Assembly (NCBI GenBank): GCA_963709345.1
Contig: CAVPVX010000007.1
Location: 320,001-384,000 of the forward strand
Direction of reading: 5' to 3'
Length of the DNA stretch: 64,000 bases
Origin: an uncultured Actinomycetes bacterium
GTDB lineage: Bacteria; Actinomycetota; Thermoleophilia; UBA2241
The notes beneath the pieces are model-generated. The model was not told where the DNA came from. It did not search any database and worked only from the letters and a program-made list of their open reading frames with translations. The translations under genes and the position numbers were made by a program. Shown piece by piece: positions 6,247 to 31,959 of the stretch (the stretch's first letter is position 1; each line of letters opens with the position of its first letter).

Positions 6247-6735
6247 TCACGTGGCGGCGCTGAACACCAGCGACTCGGCGCCGTCGGAGCCGAACAGGGT
6301 CAGCGTGTTCCCCGCCAGGTGGACGGAGGCCGCATCCTCCAGCAGCCGCAGATAGACCGACTCCGCCTCCATGTCGGCCTCGGGGCCGGCCATCATCGTC
6401 ACGGCCGGCTTGCCGGCCGAGAAGTCGTTGCCGGGGCCGGTCGTGTACGAGCCGGAGTACGTGTTCACGGCGCTCGTCCCGGATACTTGACCGTCGGCGA
6501 AGGCCGCCGTGATCGTGAAGTCGAGGGGGTCGAGTCCACTCTCGCGCCAGCGCACGAGGGTCCACTCGGTGCCCTCCAGGTCGACGGCCTCGGGCTCGCC
6601 CGATCCGCCGCCGGTACCGTCGTCCGCCCCGTCGCCCCCGCACCCGCCGAGGCAGAACAGCGCTGCTGCCGCCGCCACGACCGCCGCGATGACGATGGCC
6701 ATCGTCACACGCCGTCTGAGCCAAGAGAGTGTCAT
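6247..6735 (-). CDS. META/HslJ-domain lipoprotein
   Basis: Lipobox LGGC; LEGTEWTL...G.S..NTYSGSY...TMMAG..E..YL..L pattern. Confidence 0.75.
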   Translation of the reverse strand: MTLSWLRRRVTMAIVIAAVVAAAAALFCLGGCGGDGADDGTGGGSGEPEAVDLEGTEWTLVRWRESGLDPLDFTITAAFADGQVSGTSAVNTYSGSYTTGPGNDFSAGKPAVTMMAGPEADMEAESVYLRLLEDAASVHLAGNTLTLFGSDGAESLVFSAAT

Positions 6736-14935: not shown

Positions 14936-16325
14936 TCAGCGGTCGGCGGCGGCCTCCAGCCCGCCGGCGGCGTCGCGCCGCGACAGCCCGAGCAGCGCCG
15001 CGATGTTCGCCTTCGCCTCTTGCGGGCTGGGATCGTGCGGGTAGGTCGTCTCCGACTCGAAGAGCCGCCCCAGCCGCCGCTCGCCGCGGACCTCGTGCAT
15101 GGTGAGCGGGTCGCTGAGGTCGGCGACCGCGACGCCGAGCGCGCCGGCCACCGTCCGCTTCGCGTCTGCCAGTCTCATGCCCTTGGCCATCTCGAGCCGC
15201 GCCACCAGATCTCCGGCGGCGCGCAGCCCGTTCATTCCCGAGGCCACGGCATGGGCGACCGGCATCCCGAAGGAGTCGCCCGACCCGACCTACAAACCGT
15301 CCAGGTGCAGGATGTCGACGCAGGCACGCGAGCACCGTGAGATCGCGTCGACGGGCGCGAATGCGTTCATGGGCACGCCGCCCACGCCCATGCCGACGTT
15401 GGCGTGCACGGGGATCTTCGCGACCGCCATGCACGGCTTCATGAAGGTGAGCGCACGAGCCGTGTTCCACGCGACTGTGCGGCTCGTGTTCACGTTGACG
15501 GCCGGCCCGAAGACGGTGGCGCCGGCCTCCTGCACCACTTCGAGCTGGCCGGCGGGCTTGAGCCCGGCCAGCCGCACGCCCTTGTACTCGAGCTGCCCGT
15601 GCGTGCCGAGCACGAACTCGCCGGACATGCCGACCATGATGCCCATGTCCGGGTACTTCGCGCGCAGCCGCTCCACGGCGAGCAGCGTCGCGAGGAAGTC
15701 GGCGTCACCGCCGGCGCCGGCGGTGTCGAAGTTGATGCCGTCGGCGCCGGCCTCCCACATCTGCCCCGCCACGTACAGCATGTCGTCGACGGCCAGCTCC
15801 ACCGCGGTTTCCTGAGCGGCGCGCGCCTCGTCGATCCGCATCGCCGGGAGCAGCTCCGACCAGTTGCCGCAGGGGCCGTCGGGCTCGGAGTAGCGCCCAA
15901 GGTCCGGCTGCGCACCGTAGTGTACCGGGATAGTGACGCGCTCCTGGGCCTCCTTCATCGCCTGCTGCTCGGAGCCGACGATGGTCTTGACGGCCTTGTA
16001 CGAGTAGTCGATGTGGTAGAGCTCGCAGGAGTCCGATGCGAAGCATTGCTCGTACTGCAGCAGAGCGTCGACCCGACTGCCCTGCTGCTGCGTGCCGGTG
16101 CCGTCGAAGCTGAGGACGACTTCGTCGCCGATGTCCACAGCACTGAAGCGCGCCGAAGTCGCGAAGATATCCAGAAGGTGCTCGAGCTCGGCGTCCTCGA
16201 GCGGCGGCGACTTGGCCCGAGCTGGCCGCCGCCTCCGTGCCCTCCTCGACCTCGGCGCGCAGCTGACTGCGCGTCAGCGCCACTCCCGAGCCGTCGCCGA
16301 GCCGTGTGATGATCGTCGCTTCCAC
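14936..16325 (-). CDS. mtbB: MtbB-family methyltransferase copy 1; Pyl amber at 15290-15292; +1 frameshift near 16220 (pseudogene or sequence error)
   Basis: TRLGDG N-terminus; DYSYK, [59 protein letters not shown]. Removing one base near 16220 puts the amber at codon 345, as in the paralogs. Confidence 0.85.
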
Positions 16326-16601: not shown

Positions 16602-17990
16602 ATGGCACAGCGCATCCCGACACGGCTCGGCGACGGCTCGCTCGCCGAGCTCACGCGAGCCGAGATCGAGACCGACCTGCACGCCGGGACTGAGGCGGCG
16701 GTCAAGCGAGCGAAGGTCGAGCCGCTCGCCCAGGGTGAACTCGACCACCTGCTCGACATCTTCACCTCCCCGGCCAAGTTCACCTCGGTGGACTACGGCG
16801 ACGAGGTGATCCTCGGGTTCGACGGCTCGGGCAACGCCGATCTCGGCGCGCCGATCCTCGAGCAGGTCGTCTACCAGAACCATCACGGCGCCGACATGAT
16901 CGAGCTCTGGCATCACGACTACTCGTACAAGGCCGTGCGCACGGTGCTCTCGTTCCAGACGCAGATGCTCAAGGACGCGCAGTTGCAGACGGTGATCCCG
17001 CTCAACTACGGCGCCATGCCCGACCTGGGGCGGTACTCGCAGCCCGACGGCCCCTGCCCCAACTGGTCGGAGCTCATGCCGCTGGGCAAGATCGCGGAGG
17101 CGCGGACCGCGCAGGAGGAGGCGGTCGAGCACGCCGAGCGCGACATGTGGTGCGTGGCCGAGGCGATGGTCGCCGCCGGCGCCGACGGCCTCGACTTCGA
17201 CACGGCCGGCGCGTCCGGCGACGCCGATCTGCTGGCCACACTCAACGTCACTCGGAGGATCCGTGAGACGTGGCCCGACATCGGCGTCGAGATCGGCCAG
17301 GCCGCCGAGCTCGTGCTCGGCATGCACGGTCAGCTCGAGTTCGACGGCGACCGGCTGGCCGGCCAGTGGCCGCTCGGGCAGCTCCGCGCCTGCACCGCCG
17401 CCGGCGCCACCATCTTCGGGCCGGCGGTCAATGTGAACACGACGAAGTCGCTGGCCTGGAACACCGCTCGCGCCTGCACGCTCGTGAAGCCGGTGACCGC
17501 CGAGGCCACCATCCCCGTCCACATGAACGCCGGGATGGGTGTCGGCGGCGTCCCGATGACACCGTATCCTCCGAGCGACGCCACGTCGCGCGCCTCCAAG
17601 GCGCTCGTCGACATCCTCAAGCTCGACGGGTTGTAGGTCGGCATCGGAGACCCCCTCGGGATGGCCTCCTCACACGCGCTCGCCTCGGGCATGGGCGGGA
17701 TGCGGACCGCCGGAGATCTGGTGGCCCGCATGCAGATGACCCGGGGAATGCGCCTTCCGCAGGCCAAGCAGTACGTCGCCGACAAGCTCGGCTGCTCGGT
17801 GCTCGACCTCAGCGACACCGTGGCGATGCACGACATCCGCCGCGACCTCGGCCTCGGCCGCATCCAGGTGCAGGACCTGACGTACGCCGACCACCCGGGC
17901 GCGATGGAGGCGAAGTTCCACATCGCCGACGTTCTCGGCATCCCGATCAACTCCGTGGAGTGCTTCAAAAGGCACGCCGGCGTGAAATAG
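16602..17990 (+). CDS. mtbB: MtbB-family methyltransferase copy 2, pyrrolysine-containing (amber 17634-17636), 462 aa
   Basis: Homology continues in frame through the TAG: [38 protein letters not shown]. Confidence 0.92.
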
Positions 17991-20385: not shown

Positions 20386-21783
20386 TTGGAACGGTCCGTG
20401 CGCACACGACTCGGCGACGGCTCGCTCGTCGAGATGACGCCGAGCGAGATCCGCGCCGATCTCGTCGAGGGTATGGAGCTCGGCGCCCGCCGCGCCAAGG
20501 CCCCACCGCTGAGCGAGGCCGAGATCGACCACCTGCTCGACATCTTCGCCAGCGAGGCGAAGTTCAGCGCCGTCGACATGGGCGACGAGATCGTGCTCAG
20601 CTTCGACGGCACGGGCAATCTCGACTCCGGTGCGCGCGTCGACGAGCTCTACAGCTACCAGAGCCACCGCGGCGCCGACATGCTCGAGCTCTTCTCCATC
20701 GACTACTCGTACAAGGCGATCAAGACGATCCTGAGCTACGAGACCCAGGTGATGAAGGTCGCCCAGCTCAACACGCTGGCGCCGCTGCAGTACGGCGCCA
20801 TGCCCGACCTGGGCCGCTACTCCATGCCCGACGGCCCTATCCCCAACTGGTCGGAGCTCATGCCGCTCGGCCGCATCGAGGAAGCGCGCGACGCGCAGGT
20901 GGCGGCCATCGACCATGCCGTCGCCGACATGGTCTTCGTCGCCGAGGGCATGTGGGAGGCCGGCGCCGACGGCATGGACTTCGACACCGCTGCCGCGGCC
21001 GGCGACGGCGATCTGCTTGCCACGCTCACCGCGGTCGAGAAGATCAAGCACAGGCACCCCGACTGCGGGATCGAGCTCGGGATGGCCAGCGAGTGCGTCC
21101 TCGGGATGCACGGCGAGCTCACCTACAAGGGCCGGCGCCTCGCCGGGATGTGGCCCCAGGACCAGGTCCAGGTCGCCCAGGAGGCCGGCGCCACCATCTT
21201 CGGTCCGGCGGTCAACGTCAACACGACGAAGAGCGTGGCCTGGAACGTGGCGCGCGCCTGCACGATCATCAAGCCGGCGATGGCGGTCGCCGAGATCCCC
21301 GTGCACCCGAACGTGGGCATGGGCGTCGGCGGCGTGCCGATGAGCCCCTATCCCCCAGCCGACGCCGTGTCTCGCGTCTCGCGCGCACTGGTGGACATCC
21401 TCAAGTGCGACGGGTTGTAGGTGGGCGTGGGTGACCCTCTGGGCATGGCGTGCACGCACGCGCTCGCCTCGGGCATGGGTGGAATGCGGACCGCCGGAGA
21501 TCTGGTGGGCCGCATGCAGATGACCCGGGGCATGCGCCTCAAGCAAGCCAAGACCTACGTGGCCGGCAAGCTCGGCGTCTCCGTCGCCGACCTCGCCGAC
21601 CCCATCGCCATGCACGACGTGCGCCGGGACCTCGGCCTCGGCCGCATCCCGGTGCAGGAGCTCACGTACTCGACGCACGCCGGCGCCATGGAGGCGAAGT
21701 TCCACATCGCCGAGGTGCTGGGCGTCCCGATCAACAGCGTCACGCGCTTCCAGGAGTGCGCCGGGCTGCACACCCGGGCCTGA
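20386..21783 (+). CDS. mtbB: MtbB-family methyltransferase copy 3, pyrrolysine-containing (amber 21418-21420), 465 aa
   Basis: TTG start after [39 protein letters not shown]. Confidence 0.92.
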
Positions 21784-21811: not shown

Positions 21812-23281
21812 GTGAAGCGGAACCTGCACGCCGGCGGCGCCCGCAGCCGCGGGCTGAGCGTCAACGTGTTCACCGACGCCGAACTGGACGAGATCCACCT
21901 CGCCACGCTCGAGGTGCTCGAGCGCACCGGCGTCTTCGTCGAGGACGGCGAGGCGATCGACATCTTCAAGGACGGCGGCTGCCGGGTCGACCGCGAGACG
22001 CGGATGGTCCACATCCCCCCGTTCGTCACCGAGGACGCGATCCGGTCGGCGCCCAGCAGGTACACCCTGTACGGGCGCGACCCGAAGAACGACGTCGTCA
22101 TGGAGCCGGGGCGGGTCGCCTTCACGAACTTCAGCGAAGGCCTCCGCGTGATCGACCCGGAGACGGGCGAGCAGCGCGAGTCCACCAAGCAGGACATCGC
22201 CGACATCGCCCGCCTCAACGATTACCTCAGCGAGATGGACACGCACGAGATCTCCGTCGGCGCCGCGGGAGTGCCGCCGTCCACGTGCGCGGTCCACAAC
22301 AGCGAGATGCAGTTCCTCAACACCACCAAGCCGATCGGCGTCGGTCCGCTCAGCCGGCTCGAGGTCAACGCGATCTTCCGTATGGCCGCGGAGATCGTCG
22401 GCGGCGAGGACGAGCTGCGCGAGCGGCCCATCCTGTACAGCGGGGTCTGCCCCGTCAGCCCGCTCAAGCTGCCGCGCGACGTGACCGAGGTGGTCATCGA
22501 GTCGTCGCGCTGGTGGATCCCGGACAACATCCTCAGCATGGCCATGGCCGGCGGATCCAGCCCGGTCACCCTGGCCGGCTCGCTCGTCACGCACAACGCC
22601 GAGGTGCTGGCCGGCATCACGCTGGCCCAGCTCACCGAGCGCGGCTGCCCCGTCATGTACGGCAGCTCGACCACCGCCATGGACCTCAAGCTCGCAGCCG
22701 CATCCGTCGGCTCGCCGGAGATCTCGCTGATCAGCGCCGCGGTGGCGCAGATGGCGCGGCGCTACCTGCTCCCCAGCTTCGTGGCCGGGTTGTAGACGGA
22801 TTCCAAGCTCGGTGACGCGCAGGCCGGTCACGAGAAGACCCTCACCGGACTCACGGCAGCGTTGGCAGGGGCCAACCTGATCTACGGGGCGGGGATGATC
22901 GAATCGGGCGTCACCTTCGACAGTGCGCAGTTCGTGATGGACAACGAGATCGCACGCATGATCAAGCACGTGGTCGGCGGCATTCGCGTGGACGACGAAA
23001 GCCTGGCGGTGGAGGACATCGCCAAGGTCGGCGCGTTCGGCGACTTCCTGAGCCTCGACGCGACGCTGACACACATGCGCGAGCTCAGCCAGCCGACGGT
23101 GCTCGACAGGCGCGTGCGCGAAGACTGGGAGGCGCGCGGGTCGACCGACCTCTACACCCGGTGCCTCGAGACCGCGCGCGACGTCCTGCATGAGTACCGG
23201 CCCGAGCCGGTACCCAACGACGTCGCCGCACGCATCCATGCCATCGTCGAAGAGACCGACCGCGCCGCCGGCGTCGGCTGA
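21812..23281 (+). CDS. mttB: trimethylamine:corrinoid methyltransferase MttB, pyrrolysine-containing (amber 22793-22795, codon 328), 489 aa
   Basis: YLLPSFVAGL*TDSKLGDAQAGHEKT...ALAGANLIYGAGM matches the canonical Pyl-MttB AGx-O-(S/T)DxK...AGHE pattern; SMAMAGGSSPVTLAG and HNAEVLAGI motifs. Confidence 0.93.
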
Positions 23282-28602: not shown

Positions 28603-29988
28603 TTACAGGCGCGCCCGCTCCTTGAACCGCTCGACGCAGTTGATCGGGATATCGAGCAGCTGGCTGATGTTGAACTTGGCCTCCATCATGCCCGCCTCGC
28701 CGGGGTGCGTGGCGGACGTCACGCTGAGCAGCCCCAGGCCATGCTCCTTGCGGATCAGCTCCATGGCCACGGGGTCGCTGAGGTCGCGCGTCGAACAGCC
28801 GAGCTTGCCGGCCACGTATTCCTTGGCTTCCTTGAGACGCATGCGTCTGGTCATCTGCATCCGAGCCACGAGATCTCCCGCTGCCCGCATACCGCCCATG
28901 CCGGACGCCTGCGTGTGGGCCGACTCCATACCGAGAGCGTCGCCCGTGCCCACCTAGTAGCCGTCGATCTTGAGGATCTCGACGAAGGCCTTGCTCGCCC
29001 GCGAGGTCGCGTCGGCCGGCGGGTAGAGGCACGTGGGGACGCCGCCGACGCCCATGCCCACGTTCACGTGGACGGGGATCGTGGCGACCTCGGCGGCCGG
29101 CTTGATGAAGGTGATCGCCCGGGCGATGTTCCAGGCGGTCGACTTGCCTGTGTTGATGTTGACGGCCGGCCCGTAGATGCTGGCGCCGGCCTCGGTGACC
29201 ATGCGCAGTTGGTCCTTGGGCCACATTCCGGCGAGCCTGCTGCCGTCAAACTCGAGCTGGCCGTGCATGCCGAGCACGAACTCGGCCGCCATGCCGATCT
29301 CGATGCCGAGCCACGGGTACTTCGTGCGCAGCTTGCGGCAGGCGGTGAGGGCGGCGAGGAAGTCGGCGTCGCCCGCCGCCCCGGTCGTGTCCATGTCGAT
29401 GCCGTCGGCGCCGGCCTCGATCATGGCGTCGGCGACGAAGCCGATGTCCTCGACCAGCATCTCGCACGCCTCCACCTGGGCGTCGCGCGCCTCGGCGATC
29501 TTGCCCATCGGCAGCAGCTCGGACCAGTTGGGAATGGGGCCGTCCGGCTTGGAATACCGGCCCAGGTCGGGCATGGCGCCGTACTGCACGGGGTTGGTGA
29601 GCAGCGCCTGGGCGATCTTCATGGTCTGGCCCTCGTGGGCCACGTTGGTCTTGACGGCCTTGTACGAATAGTCGGCCTGCCACAGCTCGACCATGTCGAT
29701 GCCGACGACCGTCTCGTAGCTCTGCAGGTCTTGCACGCGGTTGCCGATGTGCTTGGTCCCCGTACCGTCGTTCGACATGACGACTTCGTCGCCGATGTCG
29801 ACGGCGGTGAACCGCGCCGCCGAGGCGTAGATGTCGAGCAGGTGGTCGAGCTCCTCCTGCGTGAGCTCGGGCACCTTGGCCTTCTTGGCCGCGATCTGGG
29901 TACCGGCCTCGAGATCGGCCTTGATCTCGGAACGCGTCAGCTCGACGAGCGACCCGTCACCCATGCGTGTGGGGATCCTGGGCTCCAA
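28603..29988 (-). CDS. mtbB: MtbB-family methyltransferase copy 4, pyrrolysine-containing (amber 28954-28956), 461 aa
   Basis: [38 protein letters not shown]. A TTG start puts the amber at codon 345; alternative ATG at 29994. Confidence 0.92.
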
Positions 29989-30311
29989 TGGCATCACCTC
30001 CGTGCGTCGTCCGGGTCGACCGCTTACGGCGTGGCGGTCACCAGGGCCTGCGGAGAGCCACGTGTGAGAGAAGCGAATCGACCGCTGGTAAGCAGGCCTC
30101 GCGCGCAACTGTACAGCAGCCCGGCGACGGCGCGCCACCGGGTCGCGACGACCCCGAGGCCGGTCTTCAGGCGGCGGCCGGCGAGCGCCGCGGAGGGCGG
30201 GGCGGGAGAAACCACGAACGTCGCCAAGGCGATCGTGACGGCCACGCGCGCCGCGTCACGTCACTCCATGCCCCGCATCCGGCGCACCCGCCCCGCGCCG
30301 CACGCGCACTC

Positions 30312-30477: not shown

Positions 30478-31878
30478 TCAGGAGACGGCAGGACCTCGGC
30501 GCGTCCGCTCCGCGAACGCCTCGACCGAGCGCACCGGCAGGTCGAGCACATCCGTGATGGTGAACTTGGCCTCGATCGCCAGCGCGTCGGCGGTCGTCGC
30601 CGTGTCCTCGCTGGGGATCGTCCCCAGCCCGAGCTCACGTCGCACGTCCCACATGACCACCGGGTCGCTCAGATCTCCCGGCTCCACGCCGAGCTTGTCC
30701 GCCACGGCCGCCTTGGCCTCGGGGAGTCGCATCCTTCGCGTCAGCTGCATGCGGGCCACCAGATCTCCGGCGGTCCGCAGTCCGCCCATACCCGACGCGA
30801 CACCATGCCCTATCCCTTGGCTGTGGTTGTCGCCGGCTCCTATCTACAAACCGTCCAGCCGCAGGATGTCGACGCAGGCGCGCGAGGCGCGCGAGACGGC
30901 ATCGACCGGCGGCAGCGCGTGCATGGGCACGCCGCCGACGCCCATGCCGCCGTTCATGTGTACGGGGATCTCGGCGGCGCGGGAACACGGCTTGACGATG
31001 GTGCAGGCGCGCGCGACGTTCCAGGCGACCGACTTGCCGGTGTTGACGTTGACGGCCGGACCGAAGACCGAGGCGCCGGCCTGCGCCGCCAGGCGCATCT
31101 GCGCCTCGGGCCAGAGCCCGGCCAGCCGTACGCCCTCGTACTCGAGCTCGCCGTGCATGCCGAGGACGAACTCGCTCGCCATGCCGATCTGGATGCCCCA
31201 GTCCGGGTATTTCGCGCGGATCCGCTCGATGGCGCGCAGCGCCGCCAGGAAGTCGGCGTCGCCCGCGGCGCCGGCGGTGTCGAGGTTGATGCCGTCGGCG
31301 CCCGCCTCGTACATGCCCTCGGCGACGTAGACGATGTCGTCGACGGCCAGCTCGACGGCCGCCTCCTGGGCAGCGCGGGCGTCGTCGATCCTGCCCAGCG
31401 GCAGTAGCCGCGACCAGTTGGGCACCGGCCCGTCGGGTTCCGTGTAGCGCCCGAGGTCCGGCATGGCGCCGTAGTTGCACGGAATAGTCAGCAGGAGTTG
31501 CGCCCGGCGCATCGTCGCCTGCTCGAAGGGCAGCACCGGCTTGATCGGCTTGAAGGAGTAGTCGTGATGGTAGAGCTCGACGGTGTCGGTGCAGACTGTC
31601 TGCTCGTAGTTCTGCAGGTCGTTGATGCGTGAGCCGGCGTCCTGGCTGCCGACGCCGTCCGAGGTGAGCACCACCTCGTCGCCGATGTCGACGGCGGTGA
31701 ACCGCGCGGGGCTGGCGAAGATGTCGACCAGGTGGCCGAGCTCACCCTCGTCGAGCGGCTCGACCTTGGCTCGCCGGACGGCCGCCTCCGTGCCGTCGCG
31801 TACCTCGGCTTCGATGCCGGCACGGCTCATCCGCACCAGCGAGCCGTCGCCCATCCGTGTCGGGATGACGCTGTCCAT
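30478..31878 (-). CDS. mtbB: MtbB-family methyltransferase copy 5, pyrrolysine-containing (amber 30844-30846), 466 aa
   Basis: [45 protein letters not shown] RBS. Confidence 0.92.
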
Positions 31879-31959
31879 GACTCCTCCAGTCAACCGCCTT
31901 GCCGAAGCCCGTCGGAGCCCCCTCGGGGTCACCGTGAGCTCTCACCCCGGGCCTGTCCG

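Follow-up and report, generated by a model that had tools for sequence, protein, structure and literature searches.

Cis-acting elements at pyrrolysine (Pyl) UAG codons have been described as PYLIS (RF01982 in mtmB, named in PMC3639795; RF02509 in mtbB; RF02510 in mttB), an RNA structure in the 100 nt downstream from the UAG that is thought to aid Pyl decoding, and downstream structure alone is studied in the accessible text of PMC3639795. Here, a cis feature of another kind is described, likewise at Pyl UAGs: the single codon immediately upstream (position -1), which shows no structural partner. It was analyzed at six Pyl sites in a 64,000-nt stretch of DNA from an uncultured actinomycete (the window, by which the whole stretch is meant; 69% G+C), in the rest of that genome, and in homologous genes from other genomes. 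Unlike PYLIS, the -1 rule is common to three gene families and, in analogous form, to two domains.

The -1 rule also resembles stop-codon context effects, in which the neighbors of a UAG shift the balance between suppressor tRNA and release factor (RF). In the 1990s, the Isaksson laboratory reportedly found that the peptidyl-tRNA in the P site alters RF1 efficiency at UAG in E. coli. Such effects are laboratory reporter measurements, whereas the -1 rule is a natural, evolutionarily maintained 5' codon pattern at genuine Pyl sites. A review of context effects in code expansion gives, in its accessible sections, the base immediately 3' of the stop codon as the main context determinant (PMC11441406). 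Selenocysteine (Sec) insertion is likewise stop recoding helped by cis information in the mRNA; however, Sec depends on an obligatory hairpin, SECIS, and on a dedicated elongation factor that reads it, and Pyl reportedly needs neither (accessible text of PMC12626013). According to that text of the same 2025 paper, Pyl insertion has no known sequence cue of broad conservation, and local codon context is raised only as a possibility in the available portion of PMC13663744. Neither a -1 codon rule at Pyl sites nor a context rule naming UUR or AUA was found in full-text searches covering the main text of open articles, and an earlier description may exist.

TTG before pyrrolysine codons in the source genome

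Wherever Leu precedes a Pyl TAG in the source genome, it is encoded by TTG. Searches of the whole genome by tblastn with the proteins of the window yielded 11 MtbB TAG sites (TTG at -1 in 10, TAC in one) and 10 TAG sites in Pyl-type MttB (TTG in seven, GCG in three), so that over 21 sites all 17 Leu codons are TTG, as an earlier reading of this DNA (the preliminary description) had claimed for the window. By comparison, in 2690 proxy gene calls, which come from a codon-usage-scored picker of open reading frames (ORFs) and not from a real gene finder, TTG accounts for 2997/87981 Leu codons (3.4%), CTC for 50%, CTG for 41% and TTA for 0.08%. By our own arithmetic, 17 of 17 would have a chance probability of 0.034^17, or about 1e-25, a figure that exaggerates the significance, since the paralogs are related.

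The six contexts quoted in the preliminary description were all found as written. The mtbB paralog at 16602..17990 (+), whose start at 16602 was inferred by aligning it with a paralog, has its Pyl TAG at 17634-17636, preceded by TTG (17631-17633) and by GGG at -2, and followed by G at +4, the base after the TAG. The paralog at 20386..21783 (+) has the same neighbors (Pyl TAG 21418-21420; TTG 21415-21417; GGG at -2; G at +4). On the opposite strand, the paralog at 14936..16138 (-) shows the context GGT TTG TAG G (Pyl TAG 15290-15292; TTG 15293-15295; G at +4), and that at 30478..31880 (-), with an approximate start, has its Pyl TAG at 30844-30846 after TTG (30847-30849), with GGT at -2, ATA as the +1 codon and A at +4. 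The fifth paralog, at 28603..29996 (-), again with an approximate start, carries Tyr at -1 in the context GGC TAC TAG G (Pyl TAG 28954-28956; TAC 28957-28959; G at +4). The sixth gene is an mttB of the Pyl type (trimethylamine methyltransferase) at 21812..23281 (+), with its Pyl TAG at 22793-22795, TTG at 22790-22792, GGG at -2 and A at +4. When TAG is read as a residue, five window proteins match PF09505 (Dimeth_Pyl; MtbB, dimethylamine methyltransferase) at 470-556 bits, against a cut-off of 25, and one matches PF06253 (MTTB) at 311 bits; MttB is indeed a separate protein family that shares TTG-TAG. Each MtbB gene of the window has one in-frame TAG, at the conserved Pyl position (TAG in 100/101 aligned homologs), and the MttB gene has an in-frame TAG at its Pyl column, which is TAG in 43/73 aligned full-length homologs.

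Two of these genes have further features. The mtbB at 14936-16138 is about 40-60 N-terminal residues short of its paralogs (it covers only positions 85-452 of PF09505, and the tblastn alignment begins at residue 38); this copy may be truncated or in decay, yet it retains TTG-TAG. The mtbB at 16602..17990 ends in a second TAG, its terminal stop (17988-17990), which AAA precedes at -1 and C follows at +4; the same mRNA thus has UAG as Pyl and as stop, in differing contexts.

The pattern differs at codons that do not specify Pyl. Genome-wide, 568 ORFs end in TAG; TTG occurs at -1 in 15 of them, and 14 of these 15 are Pyl sites. Genuine TAG stops with Leu at -1 have CTG (23), CTC (17), CTT (2) and TTG (1). 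The preliminary description had also stated that none of 12 terminal TAG stops checked follows TTG, and this was upheld for all 16 in the window (-1 codons AAG, AAA, GGG, GGC, GAG, CGG, GTG, TTC, GCG and GCC), but these stops provide no contrast in Leu codon choice, since none has Leu at -1. At the Pyl-flanking column of non-Pyl MttB paralogs, Leu is CTN in four of five cases in the source genome (CTC, CTC, CTG, CTC; one TTG, followed by TCG) and at 7/7 Leu of the homologous column in the loci fetched from elsewhere. Ahead of Tyr codons (TAY), 46/1795 Leu (2.6%) are TTR, and Gly-Leu-Tyr triplets have TTG in 4/164; hence there is no general TTG preference ahead of codons starting with TA. Outside the window, a non-Pyl MttB paralog at C10:83468 (-) reads GGG TTG TCG at the Pyl column, a Ser codon one base off TAG, and may represent a recent loss of the Pyl codon with retention of TTG.

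Reading the TAGs of the window as Pyl is well founded, because the genome encodes tRNA-Pyl(CUA) (C11:14991-15063), which is adjoined by pylB, pylC and pylD (427, 280 and 213 bits, all above cut-offs), and the C-terminal catalytic domain of PylS lies nearby (314 bits, above its cut-off). The two MtmB homologs of the source genome have no in-frame stop, and an informal check, in which TAG-ending ORFs were ranked by downstream coding potential, found no Pyl gene other than methyltransferases; six fused translations past TAG were rejected as Pyl genes, by eye, as adjacent in-frame genes with a spacer between. The MttB superfamily is very large in this genome, with dozens of tblastn matches, mostly non-Pyl, beside the 11 mtbB copies. 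TAG makes up 21% of stop codons (568/2690 proxy gene calls). A tRNA-Sec gene is also present, and the organism may therefore use both Sec and Pyl. At 6638-6731 (-) in the window, beside tRNA-Met, ARAGORN called an unusual tRNA-like gene whose 'anticodon' has two bases, and three similar calls occur elsewhere in the genome.

Synonymous constraint at -1 in homologous genes

In a species scan, one genome per species was searched with an exact pattern in which the -1 codon was left free, and at least 119 stretches were obtained. An exact-pattern recount of the raw loci takes in chance matches in non-MtbB DNA, and the counts were instead taken from the set verified by tblastn. The 100 verified MtbB TAG sites listed have TTG (65), TTA (9), CTG (2), CTC (1), ATA (15), GTA (3), ATT (1) and TTC (4) at -1, i.e., TTR at 74/77 Leu. 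A scan of genomes from the same class found the motif in 87/401, while a reversed-pattern control gave 0; a hand tally of the 150 rows listed yielded TTG (99), TTA (38), TAC (11), CTG (1) and CGG (1), the single CGG row probably being a chance match, and 397 further rows lie outside this tally. The Tyr (TAC) form seen in the window accordingly recurs in relatives (the 11 TAC rows). Among the rows listed, one high-GC sister family has TTA in all 24 of its MtbB rows. That TTA-using genomes might lack tRNA-Leu(CAA) was considered and rejected, as the gene is present in 5/5. In three TTA-using relatives (L326, L327, L328; G121, G186, G196), tRNA-Leu(CAA) lies about 20-40 kb from mtbB copies on the same contig, possibly by coincidence.

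MttB gives a similar picture. Across the fetched loci, TTG encodes every Leu at -1, Ala is written GCG (9) or GCA (1), and low-GC MttB genes have Gly, Thr, Met, Val or Ser at -1 with mixed third bases. A scan of metagenomes that demanded only Y-T-N at -1 returned at least 119 matches (92 distinct 42-mers), and among the matches listed the -1 codon is TTG (109), TTA (6), CTG (2) or TTT (2), so TTR accounts for 115/117 Leu; at a GC of >=0.62 the listed matches have TTR at 115/115, and both CTG codons come from contigs with a GC of 0.48-0.49. In Pyl-type MtmB (n = 31, sampled from the order Methanosarcinales), -1 is ATA (22), GTT (7), GTC (1) or CTG (1). All 22 Ile there are ATA, against 11.3% in the background, and a mixture of codons occurs in 26 further conserved Ile columns; these genes are closely related (median nucleotide identity 78%) and represent few independent events. 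In bacteria, Pyl-type MtmB was found at 0/5 loci checked and once among 301 sampled genomes of the class Desulfobacteria, where ATG at -1 is uninformative. The preliminary description had raised the question of whether homologs use CTG or CTC freely at -1. They do not: among the matches listed, CTN makes up 3/77 and 2/117 Leu codons in the species and metagenome sets, and 1/138, counted by hand, in the class scan. These data indicate that the rule is TTR, not TTG alone, and that archaea obey an analogous ATA rule. At the protein level, Pyl (O) follows an aliphatic residue at -1 and Gly or Ala at -2 in all three families, which are unrelated in sequence: D-G-[LIVFY]-O in MtbB, [AG]-G-x-O in MttB and G-[GA]-[IVL]-O in MtmB. 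This likeness is convergence, in active-site geometry or in translational context.

A codon without function could in principle look the same, if TTG had come from a low-GC ancestor, from gene conversion among paralogs, from local mutation bias or from avoidance of CTAG. The paralogs are related to one another, and high-GC sites seldom have C right before TAG (in MttB, all 10 Ala at -1 are GCG), which fits CTAG avoidance. Nevertheless, the proteins of the paralogs share 42-67% identity, and synonymous change has reached saturation in the other Leu columns. Among 84 full-length MtbB genes aligned by codon, the high-GC set (n = 42, GC >=0.62) has TTR at 38/39 Leu in the -1 column, compared with 0-16.7% TTR in 19 other conserved Leu columns. 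Parsimony on the bacterial MtbB subtree (70 genes, length 23.9) counted 7 synonymous codon changes at -1, the first base moving between T and C in only 2, versus 15-35 changes in other Leu columns. TTG is moreover common to two unrelated families with an ATA analogue in a third, while non-Pyl paralogs have CTN. Avoidance of CTAG cannot account for the lack of CTG, both TAC-TAG and TTC-TAG occur as tolerated sequences, and CTC-TAC is common genome-wide (913 cases). The column control, tree parsimony and codon-pair counts thus largely refute the absence of function as an explanation, which we consider very improbable.

A scan by column for anomalous codon usage placed -1 among the top two in all three MtbB groups. 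In high-GC bacteria the column holds TTG (35), TTA (3) and CTC (1), with a G statistic of 209; in low-GC bacteria it holds TTG (22), TTA (4) and CTG (1), against a TTG background of 19.6%, with a G statistic of 59.5; and in the archaeal clade ATA (12) and ATT (1) encode the 13 Ile, against an ATA background of 16.6%, with a G statistic of 39. A pause at a rare codon was rejected as a sufficient cause, as low-GC bacteria, in which TTG is common (19.6% of Leu), show the same preference. Altogether, the -1 codon is under strong synonymous purifying selection that is specific to Pyl sites, and its conservation is due neither to chance nor to inheritance.

The positions beside -1 are less sharply defined. 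The preliminary description had included GG(G/T) at -2 and a purine at +4 in the context. The former is a real but weak bias, C being depleted there in high-GC genes, and it is not fixed, since GGC occupies -2 at 32/100 MtbB sites listed. The purine is present at 21/21 sites in the genome and at 100/100 verified MtbB sites listed, but it is confounded with the encoded +1 residue, from which it follows (Val/Ile, Ala/Gly/Thr); some MttB genes have Ser at +1 (TCG, TCA or TCC), which gives T at +4 in a few cases. In high-GC genomes, MtbB and MttB alike are depleted of C at the third positions of codons -2, -1 and +1, and they are enriched in T at +2. Among the metagenome matches listed, MttB has Ala at +1 as GCG (39), GCA (30), GCT (5) or GCC (2), against a background of 52% GCC and 5.6% GCA.

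RNA structure around and downstream of the UAG

All six sites of the window match PYLIS models. PYLIS_2 (RF02509) matches at 17634..17733 (+), spanning 100 nt from the UAG, and at 21418-21517 (+), 15193-15292 (-), 28857-28956 (-) and 30747-30846 (-), the five matches scoring 46.8-68 bits against a gathering score of 36; PYLIS_3 (RF02510) matches at 22793..22892 (+), at the mttB UAG, with 71.8 bits against a gathering score of 38. Both models open at the UAG, and the -1 codon lies outside them.

Other invariant synonymous sites in these genes were traced to small hairpins. In bacterial mtbB, a mini-hairpin of 6 bp, N-GCCGG-[AGAU]-CUGGU-N, lies at 21492..21507 (+), +74 to +89 nt from the UAG, and is part of the PYLIS_2 consensus. 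It is paired in 95% of alignment cells, its outer pair covaries, and its covariation score was reached by 0/500 shuffles. The GGA codon at +26, invariant in 40/40 high-GC mtbB genes against a background of 6%, owes its invariance to this hairpin. Equivalents of the hairpin occur in the other mtbB copies, and its loop and 5' arm hold a Shine-Dalgarno-like GGAG. In bacterial mttB of the Pyl type, a mini-hairpin, G-UUGGC-[AGGN]-GCCAA-C, lies at 22861..22876 (+), +68 to +83 nt from the UAG and so at a similar distance, in a part left unpaired in the PYLIS_3 consensus; 90.5% of its cells are paired, with 20 double-change cells compared with 3.7 in shuffles (0/500), and its compensatory changes include a Leu CTG paired with an Asn-to-Ser AGC. 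Non-Pyl mttB paralogs have neither such codon-level invariants nor the hairpin, and both hairpins are absent from archaeal genes.

With hairpin arms at invariant synonymous sites, an RNA-level cause for the constraint at -1 is not dismissible on principle. One example is a stem in which GGNUU (-6 to -2) pairs with a downstream GAYCC, leaving the UAG in the loop and the U at -3 paired with the A of an Asp codon. Of 85 bacterial MtbB sites, 82% allow nucleotides -6 to -1 to pair with +14 to +19 if one mismatch is permitted, and the GGNUU/GAYCC stem (+15 to +19) is paired in 86% of cells (alignment A1), in genes where real hairpin arms underlie other invariant sites. This pairing is nonetheless no better than in shuffles (132/500 reach it); its letters are already set by Gly, Asp and Pro codons, and the one pair left free to vary (-4 with +17) is disrupted in 14/30 sequences, with no covariation signal. 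The TTG-TAG region stays unpaired in the RNAalifold prediction, the archaeal AUA is unable to form the same pair, and a stem that includes the P-site codon should be impossible while UAG is in the A site. When conserved complements to the TTG-TAG region were sought, the MttB set, which is of low diversity, offered many chance partners of equal quality, and the sole MtbB candidate showed no covariation. A constraint through local RNA structure is therefore quite unlikely.

A probable P-site context effect during UAG decoding

We propose that the codon 5' of the Pyl UAG belongs functionally to the recoding site. Synonymous purifying selection keeps it as UUG or UUA in bacteria and, in archaea with Ile at this residue, as AUA; avoidance of C at third positions, a weaker effect, reaches over codons -2, +1 and +2. 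What the ribosome holds in its E, P and A sites and entry channel during UAG decoding matches the constrained span of -4 to +9, and this makes a stop-codon context effect the likeliest mechanism. A bias of UAG toward Pyl over RF1, through the P-site codon, its tRNA or the 5' nucleotides, had been inferred in the preliminary description, and this interpretation is partly supported. At the moment of UAG decoding, the P site would be occupied by a UUR-reading tRNA-Leu in bacteria or an AUA-reading tRNA-Ile in archaea, and such a P-site tRNA may favor decoding by Pyl-tRNA(CUA) over the release factor; alternatively, it may keep the waiting ribosome productive. A P-site context effect that favors productive Pyl decoding over termination is probable, though by no means certain. 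Genomes that use TTA also have tRNA-Leu(CAA), so both UUR isoacceptors must serve. A broader version, in which the P-site tRNA directly weakens the release factor or stabilizes tRNA-Pyl at the UAG in both domains and would constitute the first broadly conserved cis determinant, is put forward tentatively.

A close variant of this P-site context effect is that the constraint guards the reading frame or the stalled ribosome and does not tune the competition between RF and Pyl; with UAG decoded slowly, CUN-reading P-site tRNAs would slip or drop off more readily than UUR readers. In the +1 frameshift of prfB, CUU occupies the P site ahead of a slow stop codon. The UUR-reading tRNA-Leu genes have A36-A37-A38, as does tRNA-Pyl, while CUN readers have G37, a difference that suits this variant and on which a role for modification of position 37 could be built, as speculation. 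In ribosome profiling of M. acetivorans, UAG stands out as a major pause site (accessible text of PMC13663744). By simple pairing rules, however, no re-pairing in the +1 or -1 frame is predicted at Pyl sites for CUG, the main alternative codon, and slippage leaves the archaeal choice of ATA over ATC and ATT unexplained. We regard protection of frame or of the stalled ribosome as an unlikely basis of the constraint.

Several observations weigh against a P-site context effect in favor of Pyl decoding. The step from a constrained -1 codon to P-site action and raised Pyl insertion is plausible reasoning from sequence patterns, and other invariant synonymous sites in mtbB and mttB, as described above, proved to be RNA hairpin arms. 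TTG is not detectably depleted before genuine TAG stops (1/43 Leu), a comparison of low power. CTG or CTC at -1 occurs as an exception, at about 1-4%, and with such exceptions the -1 rule looks like a modulator and not a switch, unlike SECIS. No simple rule fits all sites among those tried (a purine as the -1 nucleotide, a duplex that is weak in the P site, an A37 of the P-site tRNA); the purine rule is broken by TAC (11 rows listed), TTC (4), GTT (7 MtmB) and ACT or GGT (low-GC MttB). One special tRNA is also unlikely as the agent.

If synonymous swaps at -1 were to leave read-through unchanged, the constraint would still need explaining. If the proposed effect is true, the -1 codon could supply a design rule for code expansion with PylRS/tRNA-Pyl and better engineered amber suppression. 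If the rule works, it would also serve as a marker for annotating real Pyl sites; TTG-TAG marks Pyl in 14/15 cases in the source genome. For telling a Pyl UAG from a stop UAG, the -1 codon suggests a one-codon rule whose conservation spans archaea, several bacterial phyla and three enzyme families that are unrelated to one another.

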